Shown piece by piece: positions 6,635 to 57,255 of a stretch of DNA of 64,000 bases. Within the stretch, counting starts at the first letter, position 1, and each line of letters begins with the position of its first letter. A model generated the notes under the pieces. That model was not told the DNA's origin and searched no databases. It was given only the letters and a program-made list of their open reading frames with translations. This DNA comes from Phycisphaerae bacterium (GTDB lineage: Bacteria; Planctomycetota; Phycisphaerae; UBA1845; Fen-1342), in contig CAXXWX010000016.1 in NCBI GenBank assembly GCA_963675745.2, positions 192,001-256,000 on the forward strand, read 5' to 3'. Made by a program: the position numbers and the translations under genes.

Positions 6635-6651
6635 TATGATGATGTCTCCAA

Positions 6652-10061: not shown

Positions 10062-10468
10062 TCGGGGCGCGGGCAGGATAGCTTTTGTCAACAAAGAGAG
10101 GGGTAGCGCAAGTGTGTCGCAGGAGCGGGTTTACGGCACGGAGGGTGACGCTAGCTGGTGCCGGTCAGCACGGCGATGCGTGGCACGGTCTTGACGGCGA
10201 TGCCTGGGACCGCCTGGCCCTGATCCTCCAACGACACGACGGCGTCTGTGCGTTCGCACCTCAGGCTGCGGTGACTTTTCATCAAAGTGGCGAGATTCTC
10301 GCACGCCAACTTCGGTTTTCCGTGGTTTGTAGAGGGGGAGGGTACACCTGCAAGCGGGCGGGTGCAAAGGCTCTCTCGGGTCGGGCAGACGGCTGCCGCT
10401 TGAAGTCCGGCCCTTGCCCGTCTGGCGACTGAACGACTAGAGGCTCATCAGAAACAGGACAATCAACG

Positions 10469-14802: not shown

Positions 14803-15697
14803 TAGATTCGGACGGTGATCTTGATCTGGCTACGGCCAACAAGGATTCGGGGAACATCTCCGTGCTTTACAACAATGGGTGGGGAACCTTCGCGGAGGTG
14901 ACGAACTCTCCATTCCTCGTGGGGGATTCGCAGTATGATGACGTTTACGGGATTGTGGCCGGCGACCTCGACGGAGACAACCTAGTGGATCTCGCCGCAG
15001 CGAATTGGACGGACAACTTGGCTGGGATCTTCCTCAATGCAAACAACGGCCCGGATGCCAATCTCAGTTTCACACAGGCAGACTCTCATTCCCTGGGGCA
15101 AGACGATCCCGAGCCCGAAAGCCTGGCGCTAGCTGACTTGGACCACGATGGTCATCTGGATATTGTAAGCGCCAACTACGAGAGCGAAACCGTGGGCGTG
15201 TTGCGGAACTTAGGTGGCAGCCCGTGGGCAGGGTTCGATGCGGTGGAGGAGTACATTCTCCCCTATGGCTTGATCCCGGAGTATGAAATAGCTCCCTACT
15301 TCGTGTTCACGCCCGATCTCGACGCCGACGGGCTCCCGGAAATCTGTACCACAGATGCGACGAACCTACGAGTGCACCTTACCCAGTTCGTCAACTTCAC
15401 GCAGCAGGCCGGTCTGGACTTCGCGGCCCCTGAACACACGGAGCTAGGAACCAGCGGGGATTTCGTGCATGCCGCGGTCGGGGACTTGAACGCTGATGGG
15501 ATGGTGGACTTGGCGGTTGCATGCAAGAAGGGCTCGGGAGAGGTCTGGGTGTTGCTGAACCTTACCGAGCCCCCCAACAGCCGAGACTATAATCCGCCAA
15601 ACGGCACCCCGGACGAGTGCGAATGCCCGGAGGTTGCTACGGTGTCCGCGGTGAGCCCGCCCGACGGGGCGATCGACGCGCGCAAGCCACATCCTAA

Positions 15698-17148
15698 TAT
15701 GACAGCGCTATGACGTATTGGCTCGGGCAGCTCGGTGTCTTCGGCTGGCGTAGGATGCTTCATTGCGTTCCTGCCAGTAGGCTATTTGTGCACCCAGGTC
15801 ACGGTAGCGCGAGTTCCATCTGGTAAACCGATCGCGAACGATGAGGTTGACCACCTGTGCCACCTGCTCGAACGTGATCCGCGGATTTTTCCCCCCGAAG
15901 CCGCTGCGTTTGCTCGGCCAGAAAGAGCATCGCCAAGCTGGAACAGAGCCAGTGTCTCATCAAACTACAGTACGTACGCACCTCAAAGGCACCCAACCCC
16001 GCTTCCTGCTTGGCACGCTCGAACCACATCTCGATGTGCCACCGGGCAAACGCCGCCTGCAACATCTCCAGCATCGACGCGCCGCCCGGAGCATTGCTGG
16101 CGAAGTACTTGACCTCTCCCGTCTCCGGTTGACGTGCCACGATCAACCAATACTTACGATCCGTGGGCCGCGATCGGGAGCCGCCGGTGTCCACCAGGTG
16201 GACACGCGCCGCCTTGATCTCCCATACGCACGGACCACGCGTCGTCTCTTTGATTCGTACCTTCCGCCACGGCTGCTCCCGGAACACCGGACTGTAGCGA
16301 CAGACGTTCTCAACTTTCTTGGCCGCGAAAGGGCCCTGGAGCGAATGACACGATGGATAGGTCGGCCAGCACAGGAAGTTGCTCGGCACCTCGCCGATCG
16401 CCCGTTGGCCCAGTTTGTCCAGCGCGAACCAGAACGCCGGAACCTTGCCGAATTCTTCGTCGAAGGTGAGCCACGCAAACCGGATGCCGTTGCCCGACGC
16501 TTCGCTGACCTGATCGAGCGCGATCTGCCAGGAGGGCTGATGGATCACGCTGTCGGGAATGTGGGCCCGCCGGCAACGCTCCCGATCCTTGGACCAACTC
16601 TTAGGAAGGTACAGGTCGCTGGCCAGCATGCACGAAAAGGGGTTGTCCCGGTCGTTGTCGGTATACAGCAAATGCTGGCCGATGACGCAGTTCTCGACCT
16701 TGCCGACCTCGCCACACCATTGACGTTGCACGCCGGGCGTCATCTTACCCTGTTTGCGGTGGCCGCTGGCGTCGACGACACCGACGGCGTGGTCGACGCC
16801 ATGGTGATCGGCCACGTAGTGTTGCATCAGCGTGCGGACGCGGAAGTCGTCCCACGGCAAGTGCGAGAGAAACTCCTGCAGTGTCCGCACGGCCGTGTTG
16901 CAGGCGAGGGCGATGGGCTCGACGCTCTTGCGGTCGAAGTCAGACATCAGCCCGCTAACGTAGTTCGCCAGGTGCTTGAAACTACACACCTTCGGAAAGG
17001 CGGGGCGGACGTTCTCGAGCAGCGCATCCAGCGCCGGCCGCAACGATCGTATCTGATCGGTGTTCATGAGCAGGTCTCCGGATTCAGCTTCCGGATTCCT
17101 TATCGTCAAACCCCTTCGCCAATCTTGAGCCCAAGTAGCGCTGTCATA
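15698..17148 (-). mobile_element. IS701-family element (1451 bp)
   Basis: Perfect 13-bp IR TATGACAGCGCTA; CTAA duplication at 15694-15697 and 17149-17152. Confidence 0.95.
15799..17067 (-). CDS. IS701-family transposase
   Basis: RKSVEPIA, KQGKMTPGVQRQWCGEVGKVENC, FDEEFG, RWHIEMWFERAKQEAGL; likely start MNTDQ at 17067. Confidence 0.93.
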   Translation of the reverse strand: MNTDQIRSLRPALDALLENVRPAFPKVCSFKHLANYVSGLMSDFDRKSVEPIALACNTAVRTLQEFLSHLPWDDFRVRTLMQHYVADHHGVDHAVGVVDASGHRKQGKMTPGVQRQWCGEVGKVENCVIGQHLLYTDNDRDNPFSCMLASDLYLPKSWSKDRERCRRAHIPDSVIHQPSWQIALDQVSEASGNGIRFAWLTFDEEFGKVPAFWFALDKLGQRAIGEVPSNFLCWPTYPSCHSLQGPFAAKKVENVCRYSPVFREQPWRKVRIKETTRGPCVWEIKAARVHLVDTGGSRSRPTDRKYWLIVARQPETGEVKYFASNAPGGASMLEMLQAAFARWHIEMWFERAKQEAGLGAFEVRTYCSLMRHWLCSSLAMLFLAEQTQRLRGEKSADHVRAGGTGGQPHRSRSVYQMELALP

Positions 17149-32007: not shown

Positions 32008-33103
32008 TTGACCATTGAACAGACAATGTAACATCTCACAATCCGAGCTTTGCGTGCGGGAAGAACGACCGCAACAATGGCTGTTGACCTCGGCTCCGAC
32101 GAAGCGATCGGCAGATGGCTCGACCGAGCGCTCGGATGTCATCGGGGATGTAGTTGGCCAGATCGTCATACTTGGTGTGTTTCCAGACCTGTTCGTCGGG
32201 GTTGAGTTCGGGAGCGTACGCCGGCAGCCACTCGAGCTGAACGCGACGCGGAAACCGGCGAAGCAGCCGTCGAGCCCCCGAACGGTGAACCGACCACCGA
32301 TCGATGACCAGGATGATCCGCCGTTGCAGACGACGCAGCAGCGTTTCCACGAAACGCTCAAAATCATCGGTGACGATGTTGTGATCGTGGATGTCGAAGT
32401 AGAGTCCGAGCCGCCGGCGTTTGGCGGACACACTGATGGCAGATATAACCGAGAGCCGATCGCGACGGTCCCAACTGTAATGAATGGGAGTTTGGCCTTG
32501 GGGAGCCCAGGTGCGGCGGACCACCGGTTGCAGCATGAAGCCGCTTTCGTCGAGAAAAACAATGCTACGCCCGCGGCGACGCGCGTTTTTTTATGCGTGG
32601 CCAGTCCTGCTTCCGCCAACGTTCGATGGCCTTCTCGTTGCGTTCTCGGGCTCGACGTTCGGGCTTCTGGCAGCTCCAGCCCATCCCCCGCAGGACGTGC
32701 CACACGCCGGAGGGGTCGTAGCGGACCCCGAAGTGCTTGCGGATCACCTCGGCCACCCGCTTCAGCGTCCACAACTCCGTGTGATAGCCATGCTTGCCCG
32801 GGCCTCGCTTCAGCAACCGGATCAACTTGCGGCGTTGTTTCAACGAGAGCTTGGGCGTACGTCCCGGATGGGGCTTGGCGCACAGCCCGTCCTCCCCTCG
32901 TTTCTCGTAGGCCTGGCGCCAACGAGTTACGGCTGCGGGCGAGGCCCCGACCATGCCCGCCACCTCCCGGACGCCTCGGCCCTTGTCTAGCAGCGCGATG
33001 GCTCTCCGTCGACGCCGCTCCAGTTCTTCGGCTGTACCTGTGGGTCTCATACATAGGAGTATCGGCCAAACAGCGTCTGTTGCGTTAGCTATTCAATGGT
33101 CAA
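32008..33103 (-). mobile_element. IS630-family element, copy 2 (1096 bp, inverted relative to copy 1)
   Basis: Same IRs, TA duplication at 32006-32007 and 33104-33105; ORF translations identical to copy 1. Confidence 0.96.
32036..33050 (-). CDS. IS630 transposase in two frames
   Basis: Identical translation to 13760-14774. Confidence 0.9.
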
Positions 33104-42701: not shown

Positions 42702-44597
42702 CTATGCCTCTGACTTGGCGCTTGGAATATCCTCCTGCGGAATCACCATCTTCACCTGGACCACGCCGCTGACCGTGGCGGTCTCGATGCCCAGGCCGGA
42801 GCGGTGGAAGATCTTGAGCATGCCGCTGTTTTCCGGCAGCACGCTGGCGCGCAGGTGGTAGATGCCCTGGCTCTTTGCGATCCGCACCAGCTCCTCGTGG
42901 AAGTAGGTGCCGAGCCCCTTGCGCTGCCAGTCGTCGCGCACCACGAAGGCGACCTCGGCGTCCAGCTTGGCGGCGTCGGTCAGGTAGCGCCCAACTCCCA
43001 CGATCTCCTCGCTCTCGGCGTCACCGACCACGCCCACGAGTGCCATCTCCGTGTCATAGTCGATGTTGCAGAAGACCTGGAGCTTGTTGTGAGGCATGGA
43101 CTTAAGTTGCGAATGGTAGCGCAGGTAGACCGTCTGCTCGCTGAAGGAGTAGAACATGCTCTTGATGAGCGGCTCGTCGTCGGGGCGGATGGGCCTGACC
43201 CTGACTTGGGTTCCATCCAGCAGCTTGGCGGTCGATTCGTATTGGGCGGGGTACTGCGCCCGCGGGGGCGGGAGAATCTGGTTGGCGTAGACGATGCGGC
43301 GGCGCTTGGCGGCGTGCAGCAGCTCCGAGCGGAAGTCCGGGTGGGCGATGTTGATGAGCGACATCGCCCGCTCGCGCATGGTCTTGCCGTGCAGGTAGGC
43401 CACGCCGTACTCAGTGACTACATAGTGAATGTCGCCGCGGGTAGTGATCACGCCCGCCCCCTCCTGGATGGTGGCGACGATCCGCGAGCGAATGCCGTCG
43501 GGAGTATCCGCGGTGCTGGGCACGGCAATGATGGGTTTGCCGTTCTTCGCCAGGGCGGCGCCGCGGATGAAATCGGCATGACCACCCAGACCGCTGTAAA
43601 GCTGCTGGCCCAGCGAATCCGCCACCACCTGCCCGGTCAGATCAACCTCGAGGGCGGAGTTGATGGCGATCATGTTGTTGTGCTGGGCGATAGTGAAGGG
43701 GTGATTGGTGTACTCCGAGGGGTGCATCTCAATCTGGGGGTTGCCGTCGAGGAACTCGAAGAGAGCGGTAGTACCAGCGGCGAAGCTGCCCACGATCTTG
43801 CCGGGGTGCAGGGTCTTGCGCTTGCCGGTGATCACGCCCGCTTGCGCCAGCTTGAGCACGCCGTCGGAGAACATCTCGGTATGGATACCGAGGTCGCGCT
43901 TGTCGGTAAGCAGCGAGAGCACCGCGTCCGGGATGCGCCCGATCCCCAACTGGAGGGTGGCGCCGTCGGGCACCAGGCGGGCGATGTTTGCGGCGATCTT
44001 GCGGGTGACCTCGTCCGGCTCGCCCCCCGCGGGCCATTCCAACAGGGGTTCGTCGTGCTCGATCAGGTACTTGATCCGATCCACGTGCAGGAAGGTGTCG
44101 CCCAGAGTGCGCGGCATGTTTCGATTAACCTGCGCCACTACCACCTTGGCCGACTCGACCGCGGACTTGGTGATGTCCACCGAGACACCCAGGCTACAGT
44201 ATCCCCGCTGATCGGGCGGGCTCACCATCACTAAGGCGACGTCGATCCCCAGCCGGCGACTCTTGAACAACGCCGGAAGCTGCGAGAGAAACACTGGGGT
44301 GTAATCCGCCCGGGCTTCGTTCACCGCTGCGCGCACGCTGTTGCCGATGAAGAAGGCGTTAGCGCGAAAGTTGGGGGCGAAGCGCGGGTCCGCGTAAGGC
44401 GCCACACCCAACGTCAGCACGTGCAGCACCTCCGTATCGGCCAGTTCGCCCCCCACCGACGCCAGCGCTCGCACGAGTTCCTGCGGCTCCCCGCAGGCCG
44501 AGCCCACAAACACGCGCTGTCCCGGTCTGATAGTCCTGATCGCGTCGGTCGCGGGTACGACCTTGTCCGCCCAGGTGTTGCGCCAATCGTGAGTCAT
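42702..44597 (-). CDS. Acetyl-CoA hydrolase/CoA-transferase fused to a GNAT acetyltransferase (paralog 2)
   Basis: GATLQLGIG, HTEMFSDG, GLGGHADF, VTEYG; GNAT RPIRPDD, EVAFVVRDDWQRKGLG. Confidence 0.9.
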   Translation of the reverse strand: MTHDWRNTWADKVVPATDAIRTIRPGQRVFVGSACGEPQELVRALASVGGELADTEVLHVLTLGVAPYADPRFAPNFRANAFFIGNSVRAAVNEARADYTPVFLSQLPALFKSRRLGIDVALVMVSPPDQRGYCSLGVSVDITKSAVESAKVVVAQVNRNMPRTLGDTFLHVDRIKYLIEHDEPLLEWPAGGEPDEVTRKIAANIARLVPDGATLQLGIGRIPDAVLSLLTDKRDLGIHTEMFSDGVLKLAQAGVITGKRKTLHPGKIVGSFAAGTTALFEFLDGNPQIEMHPSEYTNHPFTIAQHNNMIAINSALEVDLTGQVVADSLGQQLYSGLGGHADFIRGAALAKNGKPIIAVPSTADTPDGIRSRIVATIQEGAGVITTRGDIHYVVTEYGVAYLHGKTMRERAMSLINIAHPDFRSELLHAAKRRRIVYANQILPPPRAQYPAQYESTAKLLDGTQVRVRPIRPDDEPLIKSMFYSFSEQTVYLRYHSQLKSMPHNKLQVFCNIDYDTEMALVGVVGDAESEEIVGVGRYLTDAAKLDAEVAFVVRDDWQRKGLGTYFHEELVRIAKSQGIYHLRASVLPENSGMLKIFHRSGLGIETATVSGVVQVKMVIPQEDIPSAKSEA

Positions 44598-44603
44598 GGT
44601 TCG

Positions 44604-46763
44604 CTACTCCGCGAGAATGATCCGCGCATCCGCCACCATCGCGCCTTCACCGCGCGGGTAGACGATCAGCGGGTTAATGTCGAGTTCCTTAATCTGCGGC
44701 AGGTCGGTCACCAACTGACTGAGCCGCATGAGACAATCACCGATAGCTTCAACGTCAGAGGGCGCCTCGCCGCGCACGCCTTCGAGCAGGCGATAGGAGC
44801 GAATGTCCTTGACCATCTCCTCGGCCATGCCCGCGCGAATCGGGGCGAGCCGGAACGAGACGTCGCGCAACGCCTCGGTGTAAATGCCGCCCAGGCCGAA
44901 CATCAGCAGCGGACCGAAACGCGGATCGCGCGTCATGCCCAGGATGATCTCTTTGCCAGGGTCCAGCATCTTCTGCACCAGCACGCCCCAGATTTCGATG
45001 TCCGCTCCCAGCTTGTCCCGTACGGAAGCAACCATCTCGTCATGCGCCTGCCGCACCGCGTCCGGATCGCGCAGGTTCAACCGCACGCCGCCCACGTCGG
45101 TTTTGTGCAGGATCTTGGGGCCGGAGATTTTCATCACCACCGGATACCCGATCTCCTCCGCCGCCGCGGCCGCCTCCTGGGCACTGGTCGCCAGCTTGAA
45201 GGGCACCAGCGGGAAGCCGTAATGCTGCAAGGCCTCCAGCGCCCGCACTTCGACAAGCTGCGTCCGCCCCTCCTTCAGCTCGGAGGCAAAGAGCTGCTCG
45301 ACCTGCGCCTGCTCCACGTCGTAGCGGTGATAGTCCCGCAGCGGAGCCCGACCCCAATCCGCGAAGCGCGCCTTGGCCGCCAGCGCCCGCATGGCGTCTT
45401 CGGGGAAGGTATAAGTGGGTACCCCGTGCTTCTTGAGCACCTTCACCGCATCCGCGATATCAGCCAAGCCCATCAGACACGCCACCACCGGTTTGCCGCA
45501 GTAACTACGAGCTTCACCGATCACGTTGGCGATCTCGGTCATATCGGTCATCATCTGCGGCGTCACGATCACCACGATCTGATCGACGCCTTCATCGGCG
45601 GTGACGGCGTCCAAGGCGGCGCGATAGCGGTCGCTCTTGGCGTCCCCGATCACGTCGACCGGGTTCTTGAGGGCGGCCGTGGGCGGCAGTTGAAACTTCA
45701 GCGACTTCACCGTGTATTCCTGGAAGCCGCTCAACGCGAGCCCGTTGCGGATACAGGCGTCGGTGGCCATGATCCCCGGTCCGCCGGCGTTGGTCACCAC
45801 GGCGGTGCGCCGCCCACGCGGTAAGGTCGCGTCGGCGAAGATCTCGGCGTACTCGAAGAGTTCCTCCACCGATTCCACCCTGATCACCCCCGCCTGATTC
45901 ATGAGGGCTTCGTACACCTCGTCCGAACCGGCGAGGGAGCCGGTGTGCGAAGCGGCCGCAGCCGCTCCCTGTGCCGTGCGCCCGGTCTTGATCGCGAGGA
46001 TCGGCTTGGGATGCTTGCCGTGGGTGATCCGGTTGGCGGCCTCGATGAACGCCTGGCCAGCCGAAAGCTCCTCAATGTACATCAGGATTACGTTAGTGTT
46101 AGGATCATTCGCGAGCGAGTGCAGCAGGTCCAGCTCGCTGATGTCGCACTTGTTGCCGAAGCTGATGAAGCGCGAAAAGCCCATGCCGATGCCCTTGGCG
46201 TAATCGAGCAAGGCGGTGCAGAGGGCGCCGCTCTGGGAGATCAGCCCCAGGCTGCCGGCGGCCGGCATCTCGCGGGCGAAGGTGGCGTTAAGCTGCACGT
46301 GGGCAGCCGTGTTGATCACGCCCAGGCAGTTGGGCCCGAGAATAGAGAGCCCCTTCTCCCGAGCCAAGGCGCTCAGACGGCGTTCACGCTCAGCGCCCTC
46401 CCCGCCGATCTCCTTGAACCCGGCGGTTATCACGACGAAGTGCTTGGTGCCGTGCTCGGCCGCCTCGCAGATCACGTCCTCCACCGCGGTGGCGGGAATC
46501 ACGAGCACCGCCAGATCCACCTCATCGTCAACCTGCGAAACCCGCTTCGTGCAACGGCAGCCCAAGATGCTCTTGGCCTTGGGGTTTATGGGATAGACCA
46601 CCCCCGTAAAGCCGCCGTAGATGAGGTTGCGCGTGATGGCATGCCCGACGGAACCGGGCGTGCGCGAGGCCCCCACCACCGCCACCGAACGAGGGGCAAA
46701 CAAGGGCTCCAGATCCCGAATAGCCGCGGGAGCCTCGGCCGTGGAACTGACTACGCTGGACAT
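44604..46763 (-). CDS. ADP-forming acyl-CoA synthetase, fused alpha/beta
   Basis: VAVVGAS, GPNCLG, SQSGA, SHTGSLAG phospho-His, NPVD, HKTDVGGV, ELDINPL. Confidence 0.92.
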   Translation of the reverse strand: MSSVVSSTAEAPAAIRDLEPLFAPRSVAVVGASRTPGSVGHAITRNLIYGGFTGVVYPINPKAKSILGCRCTKRVSQVDDEVDLAVLVIPATAVEDVICEAAEHGTKHFVVITAGFKEIGGEGAERERRLSALAREKGLSILGPNCLGVINTAAHVQLNATFAREMPAAGSLGLISQSGALCTALLDYAKGIGMGFSRFISFGNKCDISELDLLHSLANDPNTNVILMYIEELSAGQAFIEAANRITHGKHPKPILAIKTGRTAQGAAAAASHTGSLAGSDEVYEALMNQAGVIRVESVEELFEYAEIFADATLPRGRRTAVVTNAGGPGIMATDACIRNGLALSGFQEYTVKSLKFQLPPTAALKNPVDVIGDAKSDRYRAALDAVTADEGVDQIVVIVTPQMMTDMTEIANVIGEARSYCGKPVVACLMGLADIADAVKVLKKHGVPTYTFPEDAMRALAAKARFADWGRAPLRDYHRYDVEQAQVEQLFASELKEGRTQLVEVRALEALQHYGFPLVPFKLATSAQEAAAAAEEIGYPVVMKISGPKILHKTDVGGVRLNLRDPDAVRQAHDEMVASVRDKLGADIEIWGVLVQKMLDPGKEIILGMTRDPRFGPLLMFGLGGIYTEALRDVSFRLAPIRAGMAEEMVKDIRSYRLLEGVRGEAPSDVEAIGDCLMRLSQLVTDLPQIKELDINPLIVYPRGEGAMVADARIILAE

Positions 46764-46889
46764 CGAAACTCACCTCTTAAGGCTGATTGCCGGTCGGCGC
46801 GGGCGCTAATTCCCACCCGCCGGGACCGGTCGACTATGTAGTTGATAGGGCCGCAAGCCGCGTCGCTGACGCAGCCACTCTTACCCTCG

Positions 46890-48767
46890 TCACTGGTTCT
46901 TCTTCGTGAAGGGGATGCGCAAAATGTAGGCGCCATCCTCCAGTTCGCTCTCGACCGGGTAACCCGTCTTATGGAAAACGCGCAACATGCCCAGGTTGTC
47001 CGCCAGCACGTCCGCGGTGAAGCCGGCGATACCGTGGGCCCGGGCGGATTCGATCAAAACCTCAATCATGTGCGAGCCCATTCCCTTCCGCTGCAAGTCG
47101 TCCCGCACCAGAAACGCCGCGTCGGCGAAGTTGGTGCGCGGGTCCTTGCGGTAATGCGCGATGCCGACGATCTGAGCTTCCTCCGTGTTGTCCGTGAGCA
47201 CCACCAGGGCCATATCCGATTCATAGTCCACCCGCAGAAACTCCTGCATATTCTGGTGCGGCATGGACTTCAAGATTCTGAAGAAGCGGAAGTGGATGGA
47301 CTCGGAGGAGAGCTTGTAGAACATGTCGCGCAACATCGGCTCGTCCGTGAGCTTGAGCGGGCGGAGGAAGTAGCGCGACTTATCCTTCAGCTCAACCCAA
47401 CGCTCCAGTTCCTCCGGGTAGACCGGGGTGCGCATCGGCAGCTCGATCTGATCGGCATAGACCAGGTTCCGCCCCTTCGCCTCCGACAGCAGCCAGGGTC
47501 TGAACTTCGGGTGGGCGATCTGGATCAACGCCAATGCCCGCTCGCGAATGTTCTTACCATGCAGATAGGCCACCCCGTACTCGGTGACGATGTAGTGCAC
47601 GTCGCCCCGGCTGGTCACCACCCCCGCCCCCTGCTTGAGATGCGGCACGATCCGGGAGAACACCTCGCCCTCGGCCGTGGAGGGTAGCGCAATGATCGGC
47701 TTGCCTCCGCGCGAGCGCGAGGCCCCCCGGGTGAAATCAACCTGCCCCCCGATCCCGCTGTAAAACATCGTGCCCAGCGAATCGGCGCAGACCTGCCCGG
47801 TGAGGTCCACCTCGATCGCCGAGTTGATCGAGATCATCTTGTCGTTCTGGGCGATGATGAACGGGTCGTTGGTGTACTCCGTGGGGTGAAACTCGATCAT
47901 CGGGTTGTCGTCGATGAACTCGTAGAGCTTCTTCGACCCCATCACGAAGCTCGCCACGATCTTGCCGGGATGCAGCGTCTTGGCGGAGTTGTTGATAACG
48001 CCTTGCTCGATCAAAGGAATCACGCCGTCGCTGAACATCTCGGTGTGAATCCCCAGGTTGCGAAAGCCGCCCAGGTAATGCAGCACCGCATCCGGAATCG
48101 AGCCGATGCCGAGCTGAAGCGTGGCCCCGTCCTCGATCAAACCGGCGATGTGCTTGCCGATGTGCTCGGCGATCTCGTCCTCTTCACCCTGCGGTGCTTC
48201 GAGCACGGGGATGTCGCTCTCGACCAACACGTCGATGTCATCCACCCGGATAAAGCAGTCGCCCAGCACTCGCGGCAGTTGCTTGTTCACCTCCGCCACC
48301 ACGATGTTGGCGGACTCAGCCGCAGCTTTGACGATGTCCGTCGAGACGCTGTAGCTGCAATAACCATATTCGTCGGGTGGGCTGACCCCGATCAAGGCAA
48401 CGTCGATCACCACCCGGCGCGAGCGGAGCAGGCGCGGAATCTCGGAAAGGAAGATGGGCGTATAGTCGGCCCGCCCCTGGGCGACGGCGTCGCGGACGTT
48501 GGGACCGATGAAGTAAGCGTTATGGCGAAAGCGACTGCCGAAGCGGGGCTCGGCGTAGGTCGCCACCCCCAGCGTGAGAATGTGCACGATCTCGGTGTCG
48601 CTCAGGTCGTCGCGGGCGGATAAGGCCGCCACCAGTGCCTGCGGTTCACCCGCCCCGGAGCCCACGAAGACCCGCTGGCCATGCTTGACGCAGGAGACCG
48701 CCTCCGCCGCGGAAACCAGCTTATCAGCATAACGCTCCTGCCACGCGGGGGATGACTTATCAACCAT
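46890..48767 (-). CDS. Acetyl-CoA hydrolase/CoA-transferase fused to a GNAT acetyltransferase (paralog 1)
   Basis: HTEMFSDG, GIGGQVDF, VTEYG; GNAT AAFLVRDDLQRKGMG. Confidence 0.9.
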   Translation of the reverse strand: MVDKSSPAWQERYADKLVSAAEAVSCVKHGQRVFVGSGAGEPQALVAALSARDDLSDTEIVHILTLGVATYAEPRFGSRFRHNAYFIGPNVRDAVAQGRADYTPIFLSEIPRLLRSRRVVIDVALIGVSPPDEYGYCSYSVSTDIVKAAAESANIVVAEVNKQLPRVLGDCFIRVDDIDVLVESDIPVLEAPQGEEDEIAEHIGKHIAGLIEDGATLQLGIGSIPDAVLHYLGGFRNLGIHTEMFSDGVIPLIEQGVINNSAKTLHPGKIVASFVMGSKKLYEFIDDNPMIEFHPTEYTNDPFIIAQNDKMISINSAIEVDLTGQVCADSLGTMFYSGIGGQVDFTRGASRSRGGKPIIALPSTAEGEVFSRIVPHLKQGAGVVTSRGDVHYIVTEYGVAYLHGKNIRERALALIQIAHPKFRPWLLSEAKGRNLVYADQIELPMRTPVYPEELERWVELKDKSRYFLRPLKLTDEPMLRDMFYKLSSESIHFRFFRILKSMPHQNMQEFLRVDYESDMALVVLTDNTEEAQIVGIAHYRKDPRTNFADAAFLVRDDLQRKGMGSHMIEVLIESARAHGIAGFTADVLADNLGMLRVFHKTGYPVESELEDGAYILRIPFTKKNQ

Positions 48768-49062: not shown

Positions 49063-49401
49063 TTATAGGGTGATTACCTTATCCGCGTCGCGTAGGGTGG
49101 CAAGAATCTCGTCCATGTTGCTCTGGCGATCGACGATGAGGCGCTCGCCCAGACCATAATACTCGATGCAGGTCCCGCACGGCAGCAACTCGACCCCGCG
49201 CTCCTGCAAGGCCAGCAGGTCAGGGCCTAGCACGGATTCCCGCGCCACCAAGTGTACGCCGGAGTTATACAGTACGACGGCCTCTAAACCAGGGAAAACC
49301 TGGAGTTTACGCAGACATGCTCCCAGAAGCTTCTCCCCGAGTTCACGCTCACCTTCCCCCATCTGGGGCCGACAGAGCACCACGACAGTCTTCATAGGCA
49401 A
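49063..49401 (-). CDS. DsrE/YedF-like sulfurtransferase-fold protein
   Basis: LGEKLL, YNSGV, GVELLPCGTCIEYYGL, ADKVITL. Confidence 0.8.
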   Translation of the reverse strand: MPMKTVVVLCRPQMGEGERELGEKLLGACLRKLQVFPGLEAVVLYNSGVHLVARESVLGPDLLALQERGVELLPCGTCIEYYGLGERLIVDRQSNMDEILATLRDADKVITL

Positions 49402-49435
49402 TTCCCGGGGCTCAACTGCGGCTTATATACTGGAA

Positions 49436-50047
49436 TCAGATAGCCGGCTTGACCTTGAACAAGGGCTGCCCGAAACGCACCTCCGCGGCGTCCTCCGCCA
49501 GCACCTCGACGATCTCGCCTCGCTCGGGCAGGTCCACCCCGCCGTAGGTGATCTGGTGGAAGCACTTCATGATCTCGACCAGTCCGAGGATGGTGCCGGA
49601 GCCGACCGGCGACCCCGCCTCCACGTAGGGCGGCGCGTCGGGTGAGGACCGGCGGTAGAAGATGCCGTCCGACGGGGCCGGGACTGTGATCAGATCACCC
49701 ACTCCGGCTGATCCCTCGGTGGCGGCACCACCCTTCGCCCTTGTAGCCGCCCCACCACCACCGTCCAGGGCACGTGGGTCCAGCCGGGCCATGACCTCAC
49801 CGTAAGCCACCGGTGAATAGCTGTTCGGAATGAACACTTCCGTCACCCGACCGTGGATCTCGCGCGGCAGGCGCAGCACGTAGCGCTCGTTGAGAATCTT
49901 CATCGTGATCACGCGGTCGGACGGGTTGAGGAACAAACCCACCTTCGGCGCCCCGTCAGCCATGCCCACCACCGGTGAACTCACCAGCAGGGTATCAGGG
50001 TCAGCCTCATCCGGTCGCACGTTTGCTATCAAGGTCTTTTCCGGCAT
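49436..50047 (-). CDS. Biotin carboxyl carrier protein with a tandem degenerate N-terminal domain
   Basis: APSDGIFYRRSSPDAPPYVE, EIMKC biotin Lys, VRFGQPLF. Confidence 0.85.
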   Translation of the reverse strand: MPEKTLIANVRPDEADPDTLLVSSPVVGMADGAPKVGLFLNPSDRVITMKILNERYVLRLPREIHGRVTEVFIPNSYSPVAYGEVMARLDPRALDGGGGAATRAKGGAATEGSAGVGDLITVPAPSDGIFYRRSSPDAPPYVEAGSPVGSGTILGLVEIMKCFHQITYGGVDLPERGEIVEVLAEDAAEVRFGQPLFKVKPAI

Positions 50048-50062
50048 CTATCTTCTCGCGGC

Positions 50063-50396
50063 GGGTGGCATGGCCAAGCGTAGCGCCGCCATGCAGGCGG
50101 GACAGCAAATGGCGAAACCACTCGTAGGGTGCACCTTGGTGCACCTGTATCCTGCGTATCTCTCACTCCTGCGCGGCACATGCAGGCGCCCGACTGCGTC
50201 GGGCTTGGGCATGCCACCCATACTCGCCAGCCACATGCTCACCCTACGGGCTGAGCATGGCACCCAAGCCCTCCCCCTCTACCCTTCATCCTTCGTCCTT
50301 CCCTTCCGTCCCCACCCTTGCTCCGCGAGGATGCGCCACCCACACTCGCGTATTGTCCGAAAACCCTCGGCCGCCACGGGGGGCGGCCGCTACACT
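50063..50396. repeat. Composite REP cluster inside the operon
   Basis: GGGTGGCATGG...CATGCCACCC arms, GTAGGGTGCACCTTGGTGCACC, CCTTCAT heptamers. Confidence 0.75.
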
Positions 50397-50397
50397 C

Positions 50398-52131
50398 CTA
50401 CCCCGCGAAATCCGAGAGCACGTTCAAATCATGCATCGACCAGATGCGCGGGTTCTTCACGCGCCGATAGCCGATGCTCTGGTAGGACATCTCCACCAGC
50501 GTCATCAGGTAATCGCGCAGCTCGTGCACCGGCACGATCTCATCCGTATCCATCTGCCGGGCGGCCTTGTAGGGATCCATGTCGGCCTCGATGCGATCCT
50601 CGACCGCCTTCATCCCCGCCTCGACCTTCGCCCGCTCCGCAGGATCCTGCGTGGTAATGTTGAAGTTGTCGTCCAGCTTGGTGCGATAGGCCCCGATCGC
50701 CAGCGTCCGCCCCTCCATCACCGCCAAGCGCGTAAGCGGGGTGGAGAACTGCACGATCGGCTCGTAGGGTAAACCCGTCTCCGCATAGTAGCCCGCCCCG
50801 GACGCCTTGCGCAACAGCACCGTGATCATGGGCACGGTGTTGGTCGAGTTGGTGTAGAGCAGGTTCGAGCCGTAGGCGAGTAGGCCGTGCTTCTCCGCCT
50901 CGATCCCGATGTCGAAGCCGGAGATGTCCTGCAACCAGATGATCGGGATACCATCCGAGTTGCAGGAGCGCGAGAACTGCGAAATCTTGGCGATGCCCTC
51001 GCGATAGAGCAACCCGCCCGCCCGGCTGCGATCCTTCAGCTCCGGATGGGGCGTAAGCTGCTGATTGTTCGCGATGATCCCGACGTACAAACCGTTGATC
51101 CGCGCGATCCCCGTGACCATCTCCTCGCCGGTGTGCGGGAACAACTCCCAGAAGAGCGAGCTATCCACCAGGCGGGCGATGATCTGGCGAATGTCGTAGA
51201 CCACGCGATGATCCACGGGGAGCAAGCCGTTGATCTCCTGCGGTGAGAAGCGCGGCTCGGCCGGGTCGAATCCGTGACGATAGTAAGCAACGGCGCTGGC
51301 AGGCAGCTTCGCTACTTCCTGTCGGATGCGCTTAAGCATGGTCTGATCGTCGGGCACGCGCTCGTCGGCGCAGTTGGACAGGTGCACGTGCACGTTCGGC
51401 CCACCGATGGTGAGCGACGTAATCTTCTGGGATTTGGCGCCTTTGATGAGCGCCGCCCCGGCGATTACCATGTAGGCCTGCTCCGTCATGAAAAGCTTGT
51501 CGGAGATGATGGGCATGTAGCCGCCGCCCGCGATGCAGTCGCCCAGCACGCCGGCGATCTGCGGCACGCCGCTCGCGGAGAGCAGCGCGTTCATCTTGAA
51601 GATATACCCCGCCCCCACCCGCCCGGGGAAGGTCTTGGACTGCTCCGGCAGGTTCAGACCGGAACAATCGACCAGGTAAATGACGGGTATGCGCAGACGC
51701 AGGCCCACTTCCTGGGCACGTTCGATCTTCTCCGGCGTCAAGGGCCACCAGGAGCCGGACGCCACCGTGTTGTCATTCGCGATCACGACCGTAAGTCGGC
51801 CCTGAATCCGCACGAACGCGGTTACCACCCCCGCAGCCGGAGAGGTGCGCGGCGGCTTGCCGAAGGTCAGACCATAGTTGACAAAAGTGTTAATAGGAAA
51901 GATGGTCGTGCCCTCGTCCTTGAGCGCCTCCAACCGCTCCCAGGTCGTCATCTTCCCCTTGGCGTGGACGCGCTCCACATACTCAGGCCCCCACCCGGCC
52001 CGCACTTCCTCCCGGCGCTCGCGCACGACGGCGTTAAGCTCTTCCATGCGCGCAAGATTCTTAGTATAGGTCTGCTCGTCGACCAACTCTTCAACGGGCG
52101 CACCAACTGGATGAAGGATAACCTTTGCCAT
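50398..52131 (-). CDS. Acyl-CoA carboxyltransferase (methylcrotonyl-CoA carboxylase beta / glutaconyl-CoA decarboxylase alpha family)
   Basis: [45 protein letters not shown]; start MAKVIL at 52131. Confidence 0.88.
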
Positions 52132-52141
52132 GAAGTAGAAC

Positions 52142-53491
52142 CTATCCCAATAATCGCGCGATGAAGCCCGTGTCGTACTTTCCTTCAGCAAAGTCAGGGG
52201 ATTTCATGATCTTGACATGCGCGGGAATCGTGGTTTTCACGCCCCCCACTTTGAAGGCTTCGAGTGCTTTGACCATGCCGTTACGTGCGGCCTCACGATC
52301 TGGCCCCCAGACAATCAGCTTCGCAATCAGCGAGTCGTAATAGACCGGAATGCGATAGCCCGGGCGCACGTGCGAATCCACCCGCACCTTTACACCCGGC
52401 ACTTCCCGCGGCGGCACGAACTCGGTCACCACGCCCGGACAGGGTTTGAAATCCTCGAAGGGATCTTCCGCGTTGATCCGGCACTCGATCGAGTGCCCGT
52501 GCATCTCTATGTCTTCCTGATTGAACGAAAGCGTCTCGTTGGCAGCCACGTGGAGCTGCTCAGTCACCAGGTCGCGGCCGGTCACTTGCTCGGTTACCGG
52601 ATGCTCGACCTGGAGCCGGGCGTTTACCTCCATGAAATAGAGCTGCCCGTCCTGATCGCGGAAGAACTCGACCGTGCCGGCGTTGCGATAGCCGATCAGG
52701 CGCAAGGCCTTGCGCAGCTTCTCACCCAGATCGCGCCGCAACTCAGGCGTCATCACCGGCGACGGCGATTCTTCTACGAGCTTCTGATGCCGGCGCTGGG
52801 CGGAGCACTCGCGCTCCCCCAGATAGACGGCATTACCGAAGGCGTCGGCCATCACCTGAAACTCGATGTGCCGCCCGTCGATGATGTACTTTTCGAGATA
52901 GAGCCCGGCGTTGTTGAACGCCTTCTCCGCCTCCATCGAAGCTTCCTGGAACATCGGCGCGAACTGGTCTGCGGAGTCCACGCGGCGCATCCCGCGCCCA
53001 CCGCCGCCGGCAGTGGCCTTGAGCAGGACGGGGAAGCCCATCTCCTTGGCGAGCTTGAGCCCTTCCTCCAGATTCGGCAACGTGCCACGTGAGCCGGGGA
53101 TCACGGGCAACCCGGCCGAGCGCATGGTCTCCCGGGCGGTGGCCTTGTCCCCCATCGACTGGATCGCACCCGCCGGCGGGCCGATGAACGTCATCTTCGC
53201 CTGCTCACACAACTCCGCGAAGAGCGCGTTTTCCGCCAGAAAACCGTAACCCGGGTGAATGGCGCAACAGTCCGTCTGCTCGGCTGCCTGGATGATCGCG
53301 GTCATGTTCAGGTAGCTCTGAGCGCTCTTGGGCGGGCCGATGCAGACACGCACGTCGGCCTCCTCCAGGTGCGGAGACTCGGCATCCGCCTCGGAGTAGA
53401 CCGCCACCGACTCGACGCCCAGCTCCTTGCAGGCGCGAATCACTCGCAGAGCGATTTCACCACGGTTGGCAATCAGGATGCGTTTGAACAT
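52142..53491 (-). CDS. accC: Biotin carboxylase
   Basis: [60 protein letters not shown]. Confidence 0.93.
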
Positions 53492-53508
53492 GAAAGCTCC
53501 GTGCTACA

Positions 53509-53655
53509 GTGTGCCACTGCTCTTGAGCAGTGCTCTCAGATTGCGGGTGGCATGGCCAAGCGCCGCCATGCAGTAGGGTGGGCACCGCCCACCACGTATG
53601 TCGTTATCAATTACGTCGCGTTACCGGTCCCGGCGGTGGGCAGTGCCCACCCTAC
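53509..53655. repeat. REP cluster with inverted GTAGGGTGGGCA(C/CT)GCCCACC pair
   Basis: 53573-53594 and 53635-53655 are inverted copies; the second supplies the upstream gene's TAG. Confidence 0.8.
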
Positions 53656-54440
53656 TTCTCTTCCCCCCACCTCGGCTTCCGTCTTTCGAGAAACGCGTTC
53701 ATGCCATCCTGGCCTTCGGCGCTCATGCGGAGCTTCGCGATAACCTCAGCCGTGTAGGGACCGTTGTCCACGAGTGAACGTTCCGCCACCTCGCGAATAA
53801 GCTCCTTGGAAACCGCCAACGCCTCCGGCCCGCCGGAGAGAATCAACGCCACCTTCTGCTCGACCTCCGCATCAAGCTGCTCCGCCGGCACAGCCGAGTT
53901 GACCAACCCCAGCTCAACCGCCCGCTCCGCGCTGAAACGCTCGCCCGTGAGGAAGTACTCCCGCAGGTTCTTCTCGCCCATGCGTTTGAGCAGGTAAGGT
54001 GAAATCGCGGCCGGGGTCAGGCCGAGCTTGGTCTCACTGAAGGCGAAGTAGGCGTCCTGCGAAGCGATCGCAATATCGCAGACCGCCACCACGCCCGTGC
54101 CACCGCCGATGGCCGGGCCGTTGATCCGCCCGATCACCGGCTGCGGATGGGTGTAGACCTCGCGCAGCATCCGCGCCAGGTTGAGCGAGTCCTCGTAGTT
54201 TTGCTCGAGGGTGTAATTGACGACTCGCTTCATCCAGTTGAGGTCGGCCCCGGCGCAGAAACAGGCACCCTCGCCGGTGAGCACGACCACGCGCACCTGG
54301 GAATCAGTGCGCAGAGAGGCAAAGACCTCACGGAGGTCTTCGAGCATCTCATCGTTGAAGGCGTTGCGCACGTCGGGACGGCTGAGGGTCACCCGCGCAA
54401 TAGGTCCGTCACGGGTGAGGCGTACGGTGCCGTAGCTCAT
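53652..54440 (-). CDS. Enoyl-CoA hydratase, methylglutaconyl-CoA hydratase (LiuC)-like
   Basis: RPDVRNAF, FCAGADLNWM, GGGTG, FAFSETKLGLTPAAISPY, YFLTGERF; start MSYGTV at 54440. Confidence 0.85.
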   Translation of the reverse strand: MSYGTVRLTRDGPIARVTLSRPDVRNAFNDEMLEDLREVFASLRTDSQVRVVVLTGEGACFCAGADLNWMKRVVNYTLEQNYEDSLNLARMLREVYTHPQPVIGRINGPAIGGGTGVVAVCDIAIASQDAYFAFSETKLGLTPAAISPYLLKRMGEKNLREYFLTGERFSAERAVELGLVNSAVPAEQLDAEVEQKVALILSGGPEALAVSKELIREVAERSLVDNGPYTAEVIAKLRMSAEGQDGMNAFLERRKPRWGEEK

Positions 54441-54632
54441 ACGCAACTCCTTAGGAAGCGCACCACGAGGCCCCTGCGAACGGAGAACGGCGCAGCATCC
54501 GTCCCCCACCCTTGCTGCGCAAGAATGGGGCACCCATCACGGGGCAGCCGGAATACTCGTGAAGCGCATCCCCCACAAGGGATACGCTTCACGAGGTACG
54601 CTTCACGCTTCACGCCGCCGCGCCAGCGGCGG

Positions 54633-55028
54633 CTACTGCCGCACCGGGACGGCCTTGTGCCCGTAGTGAATGATGCCCGCGTCGCCTTCGGTATAACTCC
54701 GGCGAAACTCCAACTTCACCGGCATCCCGATCTTCAGCTCGTCGAACGAAACGTCGGCAATCTGCACGGTAAGCCGGGCGCCGTCGTCCATGTCGACTAA
54801 ACCGACAGCGAAGGGAGCCTCACCGGAAAACTCATCCGAGGGCGTCCGAATCACGGTATAGGTCACGACTTTGCCGGTGCGTTTCATCTCGAACCGGGTA
54901 AAGGCACGCGCCTGGCACTTGTTGCACACCAGGCGGGGCGGATAGAAGACCTTGCCGCACTTGTCACACTTGGCGGCTTCCAGTCGATACGTCTGCGGAT
55001 ATTCACGCCATGCTCTCGAGGGTGGCAT
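54633..55028 (-). CDS. DUF35 Zn-ribbon/OB-fold protein
   Basis: CDKCGKVFYPPRLVCNKC, GKVVTYTVI, IHYGHK; start MPPSRAWR at 55028. Confidence 0.9.
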   Translation of the reverse strand: MPPSRAWREYPQTYRLEAAKCDKCGKVFYPPRLVCNKCQARAFTRFEMKRTGKVVTYTVIRTPSDEFSGEAPFAVGLVDMDDGARLTVQIADVSFDELKIGMPVKLEFRRSYTEGDAGIIHYGHKAVPVRQ

Positions 55029-55029
55029 C

Positions 55030-56184
55030 TTACATCGCCTCCAGAATATGAACGACGGAACTTCCGCCGCTACCGCCCATGTTCTGCGCCAGCCCCACGC
55101 GCGCGTTCTTAAGCTGCCGCTTACCCGCCTCGCCCCGAAGCTGCTCGGTAATCTCCACGATCTGGGCAATCCCGGTCGCACCGACCGGATGCCCCTTGGA
55201 TTTGAGCCCACCACTGGCATTGATGGGCATCTTGCCGTCGAGCGCGGTGACCCCCGCCTCCGCGGCCGGACCACCCTTGCCCCGTTCGATCAAACCCAGA
55301 CTCTCCGAGACGATGATCTCCGCGATGGTGAAGCAGTCGTGCACCTCGGCGAAGTCAATGTCCTTGGGGTCCTTGCCCGCCATCTTGTAGGCCTGCTCCG
55401 CGGAACAGCTCACCGCCTTGAGCGCGGTAAGGTCCTCGCGATCCTTGAGAGCAATGGAATCCGTCGCATGACCCGAGCCGATGATCTTCACGCCCGGCTT
55501 CTTGTACTTCTTAACCCAGTCGGCCGGGATCACGATCGCCGCGGCCGCCCCGTCGGTGATCGGCGAACAATCCAGGATGTTCAGCGGATCAGCCACCTTG
55601 ACCGAGTCGATCACACCCTCGACCGTGATCTCCATCGGGAACTGGGCCCGCGGGTTCATGCTGCCGTTGTGATGGTTCTTGACGGCCACGTGGGCGAGCT
55701 GCTTACGGGTGGTGCCGTACTTGGCCATGTGGGCGACTGCCAGCATGGCGTACAGCCCGGGGAAAGTGATACCACTGGTCCCTTCCCACTCCATGTCCGC
55801 CGCGGTGGCAAGGGCATAAGTCGCATCCCCCCCGCCGATCTCGGTCATCTTCTCCACCCCGCCGGCCAGCACCACGTCGTGCACCCCACTGGCCACGTCC
55901 CGAAACGCCATCCGCAGCGCCAAGCCTCCGGAGGCACAGGCGGACTCCACCCGCGTCGCGGGAATCGGAGCCTGCCCCAGGTAATCCGCCAAAACCGAAC
56001 CCAAATGCTCCTGGGCGGCAAAGAGCCCGGGAGTCATGCTACCTACATACATGGCGTCCAGCTTGTCCACCCCGGCATCGTCCATGGCGAGCAAGGCGGA
56101 CTCGACGAAGATGTCGCGGGTCGAGCGATTCCACAGCTCGCCCCACTTCTGCATGCCGACGCCGATTACGGCCACTTCTCTCAT
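55030..56184 (-). CDS. Archaeal-type (SCP2-like) acetoacetyl-CoA thiolase
   Basis: [40 protein letters not shown]. Confidence 0.9.
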
Positions 56185-56196
56185 CTTTCGTATCTC

Positions 56197-57255
56197 CTAC
56201 TTCTCCGCCAGGCGGATCTTGCGCCGCAGCTTGGCGTACTCGCCGTACTCGAGGAAGCTAATGTTCTCGTCCAGCATCCAACGCGTCTTGGGCGCCAGGT
56301 CACGGGCCTTGAGCACCCGCTCCTGCACCGTAAAGATGAAGGCATCACTGCCCGCCCCCGAGCCGTAGGAGCACATCATGATCTTGTCGCCCGGCTTCGC
56401 CACATCCAACACGGCCGTCATCCCGAGCGGCGAGGCGCCTGAGTAGGTGTTGCCCAAAGTGAGTACCAGACGCCCGACCTCGATCTGCTCAAAGCTGAAG
56501 CCGAGCATCTTGGCGACGCGCTTGGGGAACTTGCCGTTGGGCTGGTGGAAGATAGCGTACTTGAAATCCTTGGGCTTCATGCCGGATTTCTTGAGGATGC
56601 CCTCGACCGCGCCTACCACCGTGCGGAAGTAGGCCGGCTCCCCGGTGAAACGCCCGCCGTGCGACGGGTAGAACTGGTGCTCGCGCCGCCAGAAATCCGG
56701 GGTGTCCGTCATGAAGGAGTAGGTCTCGTCGATGGTGGCGATCATGCGGTCCTCGTCGGCCCCCATGATGAAGGCCGCCGCACCGGCCGCCGCCGAGTAC
56801 TCGAGGGCGTCGCCGGGCGCACCCTGCGAGGTATCGCCGCCGATGCCCATCCCGTACTTGATAAGCCCCGCCTTGACCAGGCCATAGGCGACGAACATGC
56901 CCTCCGAGCCCGCCTTGCAGGCGAACTCGAAGTCCGCGCAATGGCAGTCAGGGGTGGCACCGATCGCCTCGGCCACGGTAACGCCGGAGGGCTTCACCGC
57001 GTAGGGGTGCGACTCGCTCCCGACGTAGATCGCCCCGATGTCCTTGGGGTCGATCCCCGCCCGCGCCACGGCGTTGCGGGCCGCCTCCACGGAGAGAGTG
57101 ATCGTGTCCTCGTCCAGCCCCGGGACTGATTTCTGGATCAGCTCCAGCCCCTTCTTGTAGCTTGGCGCGTCCGCCCCCCAGACCTTGGCGATCTCCTCAA
57201 CCTTGATTCGCCGCCGGGGGAGGTGGGCACCATAGCCAATAATCCCAACTGCCAT
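56197..57255 (-). CDS. Archaeal-type HMG-CoA synthase
   Basis: GSESHPYAVKP (Glu), EFACKAG (Cys), FHQPNGKFP (His), TDTPDFWRR, GNTYSG, SYGSGAGSD. Confidence 0.92.
   Translation of the reverse strand: MAVGIIGYGAHLPRRRIKVEEIAKVWGADAPSYKKGLELIQKSVPGLDEDTITLSVEAARNAVARAGIDPKDIGAIYVGSESHPYAVKPSGVTVAEAIGATPDCHCADFEFACKAGSEGMFVAYGLVKAGLIKYGMGIGGDTSQGAPGDALEYSAAAGAAAFIMGADEDRMIATIDETYSFMTDTPDFWRREHQFYPSHGGRFTGEPAYFRTVVGAVEGILKKSGMKPKDFKYAIFHQPNGKFPKRVAKMLGFSFEQIEVGRLVLTLGNTYSGASPLGMTAVLDVAKPGDKIMMCSYGSGAGSDAFIFTVQERVLKARDLAPKTRWMLDENISFLEYGEYAKLRRKIRLAEK

Follow-up and report, generated by a model that had tools for sequence, protein, structure and literature searches.

A conserved operon linking an archaeal-type HMG-CoA synthase complex to a split biotin-dependent carboxylase in Phycisphaerae: a candidate lyase-free end to leucine breakdown

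Which way does carbon flow through an operon that joins an archaeal-type 3-hydroxy-3-methylglutaryl-CoA (HMG-CoA) synthase complex to a biotin-dependent carboxylase, in a genome with no known consumer of HMG-CoA? The question is raised by a 64,000-nucleotide stretch of DNA from a Phycisphaerae bacterium (assembly GCA_963675745.2, contig CAXXWX010000016.1, positions 192,001 to 256,000; hereafter the window). At positions 49063-57255 of the window, genes for HMG-CoA synthase (HMGS), a thiolase and a DUF35 protein (together, the trio) lie with genes for a LiuC-like hydratase, a biotin carboxylase (BC), an acyl-CoA carboxyltransferase (CT) and a biotin carrier. The original prediction for the locus had three acetyl-CoA converted to 3-methylcrotonyl-CoA. 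The passage of carbon between acetyl-CoA and a C5 enoyl-CoA via HMG-CoA is supported by the analysis described here; the direction is less well supported, as the architecture of the carboxylase, the neighboring genes and the relatives of the organism fit breakdown better. We consider the most likely role of the operon to be the last part of leucine/isovalerate breakdown, carried out in the absence of HMG-CoA lyase by an HMGS/thiolase complex working in reverse; in this reading we place about even confidence.

All eight genes originally listed were found on the minus strand, with no opposite-strand gene between them, and their family assignments hold (Table 1). From the HMGS gene to the DsrE-like gene the spacing is, in order, 12, 1, about 190, 160, 10, 350 and 34 nt, with the DUF35 start 1 nt past the thiolase stop, and no intrinsic-terminator-like site was detected in any gap. 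The spacing, the lack of terminator-like sites and the gene order kept in other genomes suggest that the genes are co-transcribed. The DsrE-like gene had been counted as a member of the cluster, but this did not survive: it and two CoA-transferase-GNAT fusion genes have counterparts in none of the 80 related loci. What is conserved is a single operon of seven genes, 49436-57255. The larger gaps had been described as mostly repeats, which is true of the hydratase-BC and CT-BCCP gaps and not of the DUF35-hydratase and DsrE-CoA-transferase gaps, for which blastn against the genome returned only self-matches. The top-listed matches of the CT-BCCP gap repeat are on the window's own contig (C16). 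A REP-like palindrome of about 26 nt, with the core GGTGGGCA.TGCCCACC, lies at 53492-53651 and recurs on many contigs; a second common motif sits before the start codons of both the BC and the carrier genes.

Table 1. Features of the operon and its adjoining gene, with the family models or repeat searches that support each assignment
Feature	Position in window	Strand	Evidence
Archaeal-type HMG-CoA synthase, 352 aa	56197..57255	-	TIGR00748 523 bits (cut-off 353); NF003274 528 bits (cut-off 244)
Archaeal/SCP2-type acetoacetyl-CoA thiolase, 384 aa	55030..56184	-	NF004720 528 bits (cut-off 420)
DUF35 scaffold protein, 131 aa, zinc ribbon and OB fold	54633..55028	-	PF01796 72 bits; PF12172 41 bits
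LiuC/AtuE-like enoyl-CoA hydratase (crotonase), probable 3-methylglutaconyl-CoA hydratase	53652..54440	-	PF00378 197 bits
Intergenic gap hydratase-BC, 160 bp, REP-like palindromic element	53492..53651	.	36 blastn matches genome-wide, self included
Biotin carboxylase, stand-alone, 449 aa	52142..53491	-	TIGR00514 accC 650 bits (cut-off 626)
Acyl-CoA carboxyltransferase (CT), 577 aa, distinct highly conserved clade	50398..52131	-	PF01039 335 bits
Intergenic gap CT-BCCP, 350 bp, repeat copies common within island	50048..50397	.	20 blastn matches, self included
Biotin carrier, N-terminal BT-like beta-barrel, 203 aa	49436..50047	-	PF00364 36 bits
DsrE/YedF-C-terminal-like protein, neighbor outside conserved unit	49063..49401	-	PF02635 24.7 bits (just above cut-off); TIGR03527 87.5 bits (below cut-off)

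The trio resembles the thiolase/HMGS/DUF35 channelling complex of Methanothermococcus thermolithotrophicus (6ESQ/6ET9) in having its three genes in a row and in its sequences. The window HMGS scored 463 bits against the archaeal enzyme (6ESQ_I), and its motifs GSESHPYAVKP, EFACKAG, FHQPNGKF and GNTYSGA are conserved in the alignment; GSESHPY, EFACKAG and FHQPNGKF, which we take to be the active-site Glu, Cys and His motifs, are identical in the two proteins. The thiolase scored 363 bits against 6ESQ_A, with its motifs ACASG, EVHDCF and SGGLK..GH aligned, and 531 bits with NF053570, below the cut-off of 600. DUF35 homologues of 129-134 aa occupy the equivalent position in related loci. The archaeal complex, however, feeds the mevalonate pathway, whereas here HMG-CoA reductase (HMGR) and mevalonate genes are lacking and the trio is joined to carboxylase and hydratase genes; the window trio is predicted to form such a complex, and the reverse direction that we propose is not known for any member of the family. 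According to PMC12960953, the Friedel-Crafts acyltransferases PhlABC and MucABC are diverged bacterial descendants of the same tripartite complex. They share its three-protein architecture, but the window HMGS, which retains the Cys motif, scored only 180-190 bits against PhlA and is far closer to true HMGS.

The biotin enzyme was examined module by module. All 36 aligned homologues keep the carrier motif E-x-M-K, with the biotinyl Lys. The carrier, modelled with AlphaFold (mean pLDDT 89.9), aligned over 195-208 columns, with a Foldseek probability of 1.00, to the BT and BCCP domains of the alpha subunits 6ybp, 9yx0 and 8j78 of propionyl-CoA carboxylase (PCC) and 3-methylcrotonyl-CoA carboxylase (MCC). 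The BC, BT and BCCP modules of MCC alpha are therefore all present in the window, split over two genes. With its intact, adjacent BC and a carrier of BT+BCCP fold, the biotin enzyme is predicted to be a split ATP-dependent carboxylase holoenzyme. Its CT gave a near tie against solved structures (GcdA 3gf3, 251 bits; MCC-beta 3u9r, 251; AccD1, 248; PCC-beta 9tps, 242), and the best 120 listed homologues are 77-96% identical to it. The separate biotin carrier and the score against GcdA recall the glutaconyl-CoA decarboxylase GcdABCD; unlike GcdABCD, the window has a BC and a carrier with a BT domain, and no membrane GcdB/OAD_beta subunit was found in the host genome or in a complete Phycisphaerales chromosome with the operon (G031). 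A search for the Na+-pump beta subunit PF03977 also gave no match in G046; the subunit was found in G035 and, as a fragment, in G033. The hydratase fell below the cut-offs of its best NCBIfam models, PRK07468 (275 bits, cut-off 350) and gamma-carboxygeranoyl-CoA hydratase (244 bits, cut-off 426). It is 46% identical to a hydratase that adjoins MCC-alpha and HMG-CoA lyase genes in a genome of the same genus (G002).

As originally noted, the 64-kb window contains no gene for HMG-CoA lyase, HMGR or an acyl-CoA dehydrogenase, and the known HMG-CoA consumers are missing from the host genome (G000) as a whole. In G000, which is 91% complete, there was no match to the HMGR family PF00368 and none to the HMGL-like family PF00682, hence no lyase; the lyases of relatives had no tblastn match there either, and the same held for an HMGR/mevalonate kinase (MVK) fusion and a diphosphomevalonate decarboxylase (MVD) from a relative. 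Since IspG is present, and IspH, not in the G000 assembly, occurs in 27/30 relatives, the lineage appears from its gene content to use the MEP route. The complete 3.9-Mb chromosome G031, which carries the whole operon (L022), likewise has no HMGR and no HMGL-like gene.

We then surveyed 50 genomes for the lyase (NF004283) and for HMGR (PF00368); the trio-linked operon is present in 32 of them, and BC, CT and carrier alone in the other 18. A lyase-family match was found in six of the 32 trio-linked genomes (five above cut-off) and HMGR in seven; both were present in one genome and neither in 20. The corresponding figures were 7 and 12 for the 18 trio-less genomes, and 0 and 4 for the 18 trio-linked genomes whose CT is at least 75% identical to the window's. 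Given the lack of a known consumer in G000, HMG-CoA would there be only an intermediate between acetyl-CoA and a C5 enoyl-CoA. That carbon passes through HMG-CoA between these two, in one direction or the other, we regard as probable. It would follow that one of the two, the synthase complex or the carboxylase, runs opposite to the direction usually ascribed to it.

The two halves of the operon, the trio on one side and BC-CT with the hydratase on the other, are genuinely co-conserved, as the original prediction had supposed. A CT-based scan of species-representative genomes gave the 80 related loci, which were then searched with the window proteins; linkage was counted in the 48 with at least 5.5 kb upstream of CT. 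The trio lay directly upstream of BC-CT in 26/48 loci, was partial in 2/48 and was lacking in 20/48. The hydratase was present in 24 of the 26 trio loci, 17 times between DUF35 and BC, as in the window, and seven times after the carrier; the other two loci are cut off downstream. An acyl-CoA dehydrogenase gene was found in 14/26 trio loci, downstream in eight (Aminicenantes-, Chrysiogenales- and KSB1-type) and divergently upstream in six (Eisenbacteria-type). Neither a hydratase nor an acyl-CoA dehydrogenase occurred near BC-CT in any of the 20 trio-less loci. BC lies directly upstream of CT and is intact throughout the related loci, and the operon order is kept across Phycisphaerae, Eisenbacteria, Acidobacteriota, Deltaproteobacteria, Aminicenantes, Chrysiogenales and KSB1 metagenome-assembled genomes (MAGs). 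No further conserved gene accompanied the operon in Phycisphaerae-type loci. The neighbors of the trio-less BC-CT-carrier genes (ParA-like, HhH-GPD, TruD, MlaD and others) were also considered as a clue to the substrate; they are unrelated and gave none.

Genes adjoining the operon in other genomes bear on its function. In two loci (L013:12470-19917 and L033:8030-15472) a thioredoxin and a complete branched-chain 2-oxoacid dehydrogenase complex (BCKDH; E3, E1-alpha, E1-beta, E2) are encoded directly downstream on the same strand; the genes were annotated in L013, and L033 was matched by tblastn for E3, E1 and E2. IcmF and beta-oxidation genes adjoin the operon in L050, L065 and L073. In a Deltaproteobacteria MAG (L039:14-4145), MVD, a GHMP kinase and a 749-aa HMGR-mevalonate-kinase fusion lie immediately before the seven-gene operon and are read in its direction, which suggests that HMG-CoA, as a common metabolite, brought the modules together. 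An M20 peptidase and a lipoate-protein ligase gene follow the 2-oxoacid dehydrogenase genes, and a methylmalonyl-CoA-mutase-like gene lies upstream in L013.

Parts of the operon were also seen apart. In a close relative, a Phycisphaerales chromosome (G032; L021, L098), the operon is broken: the chromosome has HMGS, thiolase and residues 2-31 only of DUF35 at 2.70 Mb, and BC residues 198-449 followed by CT and the carrier at 5.1 Mb; the hydratase was seen at neither site. In a genome of the same family (G007, contig C345; L095:6870-10943), genes for a true HMGS (499 bits), a thiolase, a DUF35 protein and a crotonase stand in a row before a transaldolase gene, with no BC-CT in the locus.

What do relatives of G000 have instead? 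A genome of the same genus (G002) and one of the same family (G004) each carry genes for a hydratase, for MCC-alpha and for an HMG-CoA lyase (scores of 382 and 395 bits against a cut-off of 246); G004 additionally has a canonical MCC-beta, to which the window CT is 34% identical. When the hydratase, BC and CT genes of these relatives were searched against G000, the best matches were the window's own genes, at 34-50% identity; the window hydratase and BC are 42-46% and 46-50% identical, respectively, to their counterparts in the lyase-linked clusters. G000 has a single acyl-CoA-carboxylase-type CT. Because the relatives carry the lyase set, whereas G000 has only the window counterparts and no lyase, the trio seems, by this comparison of gene sets, to fill the functional slot of the lyase. 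The operon thus resembles the liu pathway of G002 and G004 in its BC/CT pair, its LiuC-like hydratase and a carrier folded as in MCC alpha. It differs in having no lyase, an alpha subunit split into BC and BT-BCCP, a CT of a separate clade and no isovaleryl-CoA dehydrogenase (IVD) in the window.

From the gene identities, the operon structure, the co-conservation, the missing HMGR and lyase and the carboxylase-type architecture, we infer both the substrates and the direction of flux. Breakdown is favored over synthesis because of the intact adjacent BC, the BT+BCCP fold, the lack of a pump, the BCKDH, IcmF and dehydrogenase neighbors, and the lyase set in relatives. In breakdown, BC, CT and the BT-BCCP carrier would carboxylate 3-methylcrotonyl-CoA to 3-methylglutaconyl-CoA at the expense of ATP, and the LiuC-like hydratase would turn the product into HMG-CoA. 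The HMGS/thiolase/DUF35 channelling complex, in reverse, would then convert HMG-CoA and CoA to acetyl-CoA and acetoacetyl-CoA, and thiolysis of the latter would yield two more acetyl-CoA. The thioester lost as free acetoacetate in the lyase route would be retained.

Several observations weigh against breakdown by a reversed complex. The hydrolytic step of HMGS is usually regarded as irreversible. By our estimate the sum HMG-CoA + 2 CoA = 3 acetyl-CoA would be near thermoneutral, the unfavorable reversal of the synthase being paid for by the favorable thiolysis. Reversal of the synthase in a catabolic route is a proposal. Known consumers do occur together with the operon in some genomes, as the lyase-family and HMGR matches among the 32 trio-linked genomes show, and the G000 assembly is incomplete, with 6% contamination. 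The supply of 3-methylcrotonyl-CoA is a further difficulty: the window operon has no dehydrogenase, and tblastn found no match for BCKDH E1-alpha in G000. The best G000 dehydrogenase (contig C28) is 52% and 43% identical to the operon-linked ones of Eisenbacteria- and Aminicenantes-type loci, respectively, and belongs to a butyrate-type bcd-thl-hbd-crt cluster. In other phyla, the dehydrogenases linked to the operon are themselves nearer to Bcd-type enzymes (378-340 bits) than to IVDs (258-278 bits). Bcd-type enzymes also work reductively. We had considered the dehydrogenase as a marker of direction; with the nearest solved structures being Bcd-type rather than IVD, it decides nothing. The specificity of CT is not fixed by its sequence, GcdA, MCC-beta and one PCC-beta scoring alike. 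Finally, G000 lacks the LeuA-type and LeuC-type genes that its relatives have, a possible hint at synthesis.

In the synthetic direction the trio would make HMG-CoA from three acetyl-CoA, the hydratase would dehydrate it, and the biotin enzyme would decarboxylate 3-methylglutaconyl-CoA to 3-methylcrotonyl-CoA, with the energy wasted or BC running backwards to make ATP. This we judge unlikely, while allowing it a real chance. The trio would work in its known favorable direction, as seen from its homology to 6ESQ, and the missing HMGR and lyase fit synthesis equally well; the operon-linked dehydrogenases, being Bcd-like, could reduce an enoyl-CoA. Decarboxylation, on the other hand, needs no ATP-grasp BC; nevertheless an intact BC stands beside CT throughout, and the carrier bears a BT domain like that of carboxylase holoenzymes. 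Relatives, moreover, hold the catabolic lyase set in this functional slot. The BCKDH complex in the same string in L013 and L033 also argues against synthesis, as it already makes isovaleryl-CoA from leucine.

As to the product, the synthetic route may supply isovaleryl-CoA, from which iso-branched lipids or leucine could be made; it would then be a counterpart of the myxobacterial AIB pathway that relies on biotin. This possibility we likewise hold doubtful. PMC5389471 and PMC7756340 describe how the AIB pathway of Myxococcus xanthus (MvaS, LiuC, AibA/B, AibC) links HMG-CoA, 3-methylglutaconyl-CoA and dimethylacrylyl-CoA outside mevalonate synthesis, proof that a route from HMG-CoA to isovaleryl-CoA exists in nature. 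However, the decarboxylase of AIB is CoA-transferase-like and does not depend on biotin, and AIB also has a reductase; the operon has an ATP-dependent biotin carboxylase set instead. No AibA/B-like or AibC-like gene is present, all seven operon genes falling in other families. A need for leucine could be read from the lack of LeuA- and LeuC-type genes in G000, as both are present in G002 and G004. The idea that LeuA loss tracks the trio was rejected: LeuA-type matches of at least 295 bits were found in 2/32 trio-linked and 2/18 trio-less genomes. G000 is either a leucine auxotroph or has a gap in its assembly. Its sole match to the LeuC model is an aconitase-sized open reading frame (ORF) on contig C4; in G002 and G004 the LeuA and LeuC genes lie side by side.

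Alternatively, both arms could meet at HMG-CoA and an outside consumer could use it, either mevalonate synthesis, where HMGR is present, or, in G000, an unrecognised non-homologous lyase or reductase. We consider this improbable. The mevalonate version had been offered as an alternative in the original prediction; it finds a real counterpart in L039, where mevalonate genes stand directly before the operon, and it fails for G000, which has no HMGR, MVD or MVK and has the MEP gene IspG. HMGR in 7/32 and a lyase-family match in 6/32 trio-linked genomes are in keeping with a consumer elsewhere, and searches with known families are blind to an analogous enzyme of another fold. In contrast, 20/32 of these genomes have neither, the complete chromosome G031 has no HMGR and no HMGL-like gene, and the Phycisphaerae-type loci hold no extra conserved gene.

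Still less probable, in our estimation, is that the enzymes act on other substrates (crotonyl- or glutaconyl-CoA, or longer 3-substituted enoyl-CoA) or are mere neighbors, so that HMG-CoA does not link the halves. The equal scores of CT against GcdA and MCC-beta, its 34% identity to canonical MCC-beta and a hydratase below every NCBIfam cut-off would allow it, as would the occurrence of BC-CT-carrier alone among unrelated genes in 20/48 loci. However, the hydratase and dehydrogenase adjoin BC-CT only where the trio is present (hydratase, 24/26 against 0/20), and the gene order is kept across seven groups, from Phycisphaerae to KSB1 MAGs. The HMGS is also a high-scoring equivalog match with intact motifs, and no GcdB-type subunit was found. 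Very unlikely, lastly, is synthesis with a soluble BC in reverse, in which decarboxylation of methylglutaconyl-CoA would load carboxybiotin, to be discharged into ATP from ADP and phosphate; it stands because the missing HMGR and lyase say only that one of two 'one-way' enzymes is reversed, and if true it would be a substrate-level phosphorylation driven by decarboxylation, with no membrane pump involved, in a pathway that leads from three acetyl-CoA to branched C5 units.

How did G000, a genome of 5.2 Mb in 28 contigs, come by the operon? The window is bacterial (Der, YchF, GreA-like and HypD genes, many transposases), and the possibility that C16 is a contaminant was rejected, the whole contig having a tetranucleotide correlation of r = 0.995 with the genome. 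The last 95 kb of C16, window included, are atypical (r = 0.93-0.955, against at least 0.98 for earlier stretches of C16). Among 30 relatives of the same genus, family and order, none had a match to the window CT at E <= 1e-100, and only G007 matched the window HMGS at E <= 1e-50. Metagenomic proteins, in contrast, are up to 96% identical to CT, those named being from Phycisphaerae, other Planctomycetota, Eisenbacteria and Acidobacteriota. Because of the atypical composition of the end of C16, the lack of such a CT match in the 30 relatives and the close metagenomic homologues, the operon, which lies in a compositionally atypical, transposon-rich island, looks horizontally acquired.

Other features of the window and the genome were noted. 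Positions 3046-17109 are rich in mobile elements (a group II intron reverse transcriptase/maturase fragment, a large serine recombinase, IstB, a Mutator-family transposase and a DDE_5 transposase). An insertion sequence with HTH and DDE_3 ORFs (13760-14774) interrupts an FG-GAP repeat gene (12366-13721 / 14784-15713), and a second, inverted copy lies at 32036-33050. On the minus strand at 42702-48767, two fusions of 625-631 aa (butyryl-CoA:acetate CoA-transferase-like with a C-terminal, Pat-like GNAT domain) lie on either side of a 719-aa ADP-forming acyl-CoA synthetase (ACD), and contig C5 has a third such fusion (70% identical). Of the 80 related loci, only 5 have a homologue of the ACD (39-40% identical), which there lies some 3-7 kb away and on the opposite strand. 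A paralogous string of KS/HMGS-like, thiolase, DUF35 and crotonase genes is present on contig C3 at about 241.7-245.2 kb (L097:5725-9182, minus strand). Its thiolase and DUF35 are 43% and 40% identical to the window copies, and its HMGS-like protein scored only 107 bits with NF003274 (cut-off 244). The string probably has a different condensing or retro-aldol function.

The operon is built from parts of familiar kinds (the archaeal channelling complex, carboxylases of MCC/PCC type, hydratases of LiuC/AtuE type); full-text searches found no paper on a linkage of trio, carboxylase and hydratase in the absence of both lyase and reductase. One consequence concerns annotation: an 'archaeal HMGS' in a bacterial genome is no evidence of a mevalonate pathway. 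Whichever way the flux goes, this operon, which is widely conserved among uncultured bacteria of sediments and groundwater, would have one enzyme, HMG-CoA synthase or biotin carboxylase, act in vivo opposite to the direction accepted for it. Should the synthase complex cleave HMG-CoA, the yield from leucine would be three acetyl-CoA rather than acetyl-CoA and free acetoacetate. One energy-rich bond would thereby be saved per leucine, which matters for energy-limited anaerobes living on peptides. HMGS would also be, after the reversed citrate synthase, a second hydrolysis-driven condensing enzyme that is reversible in cells.

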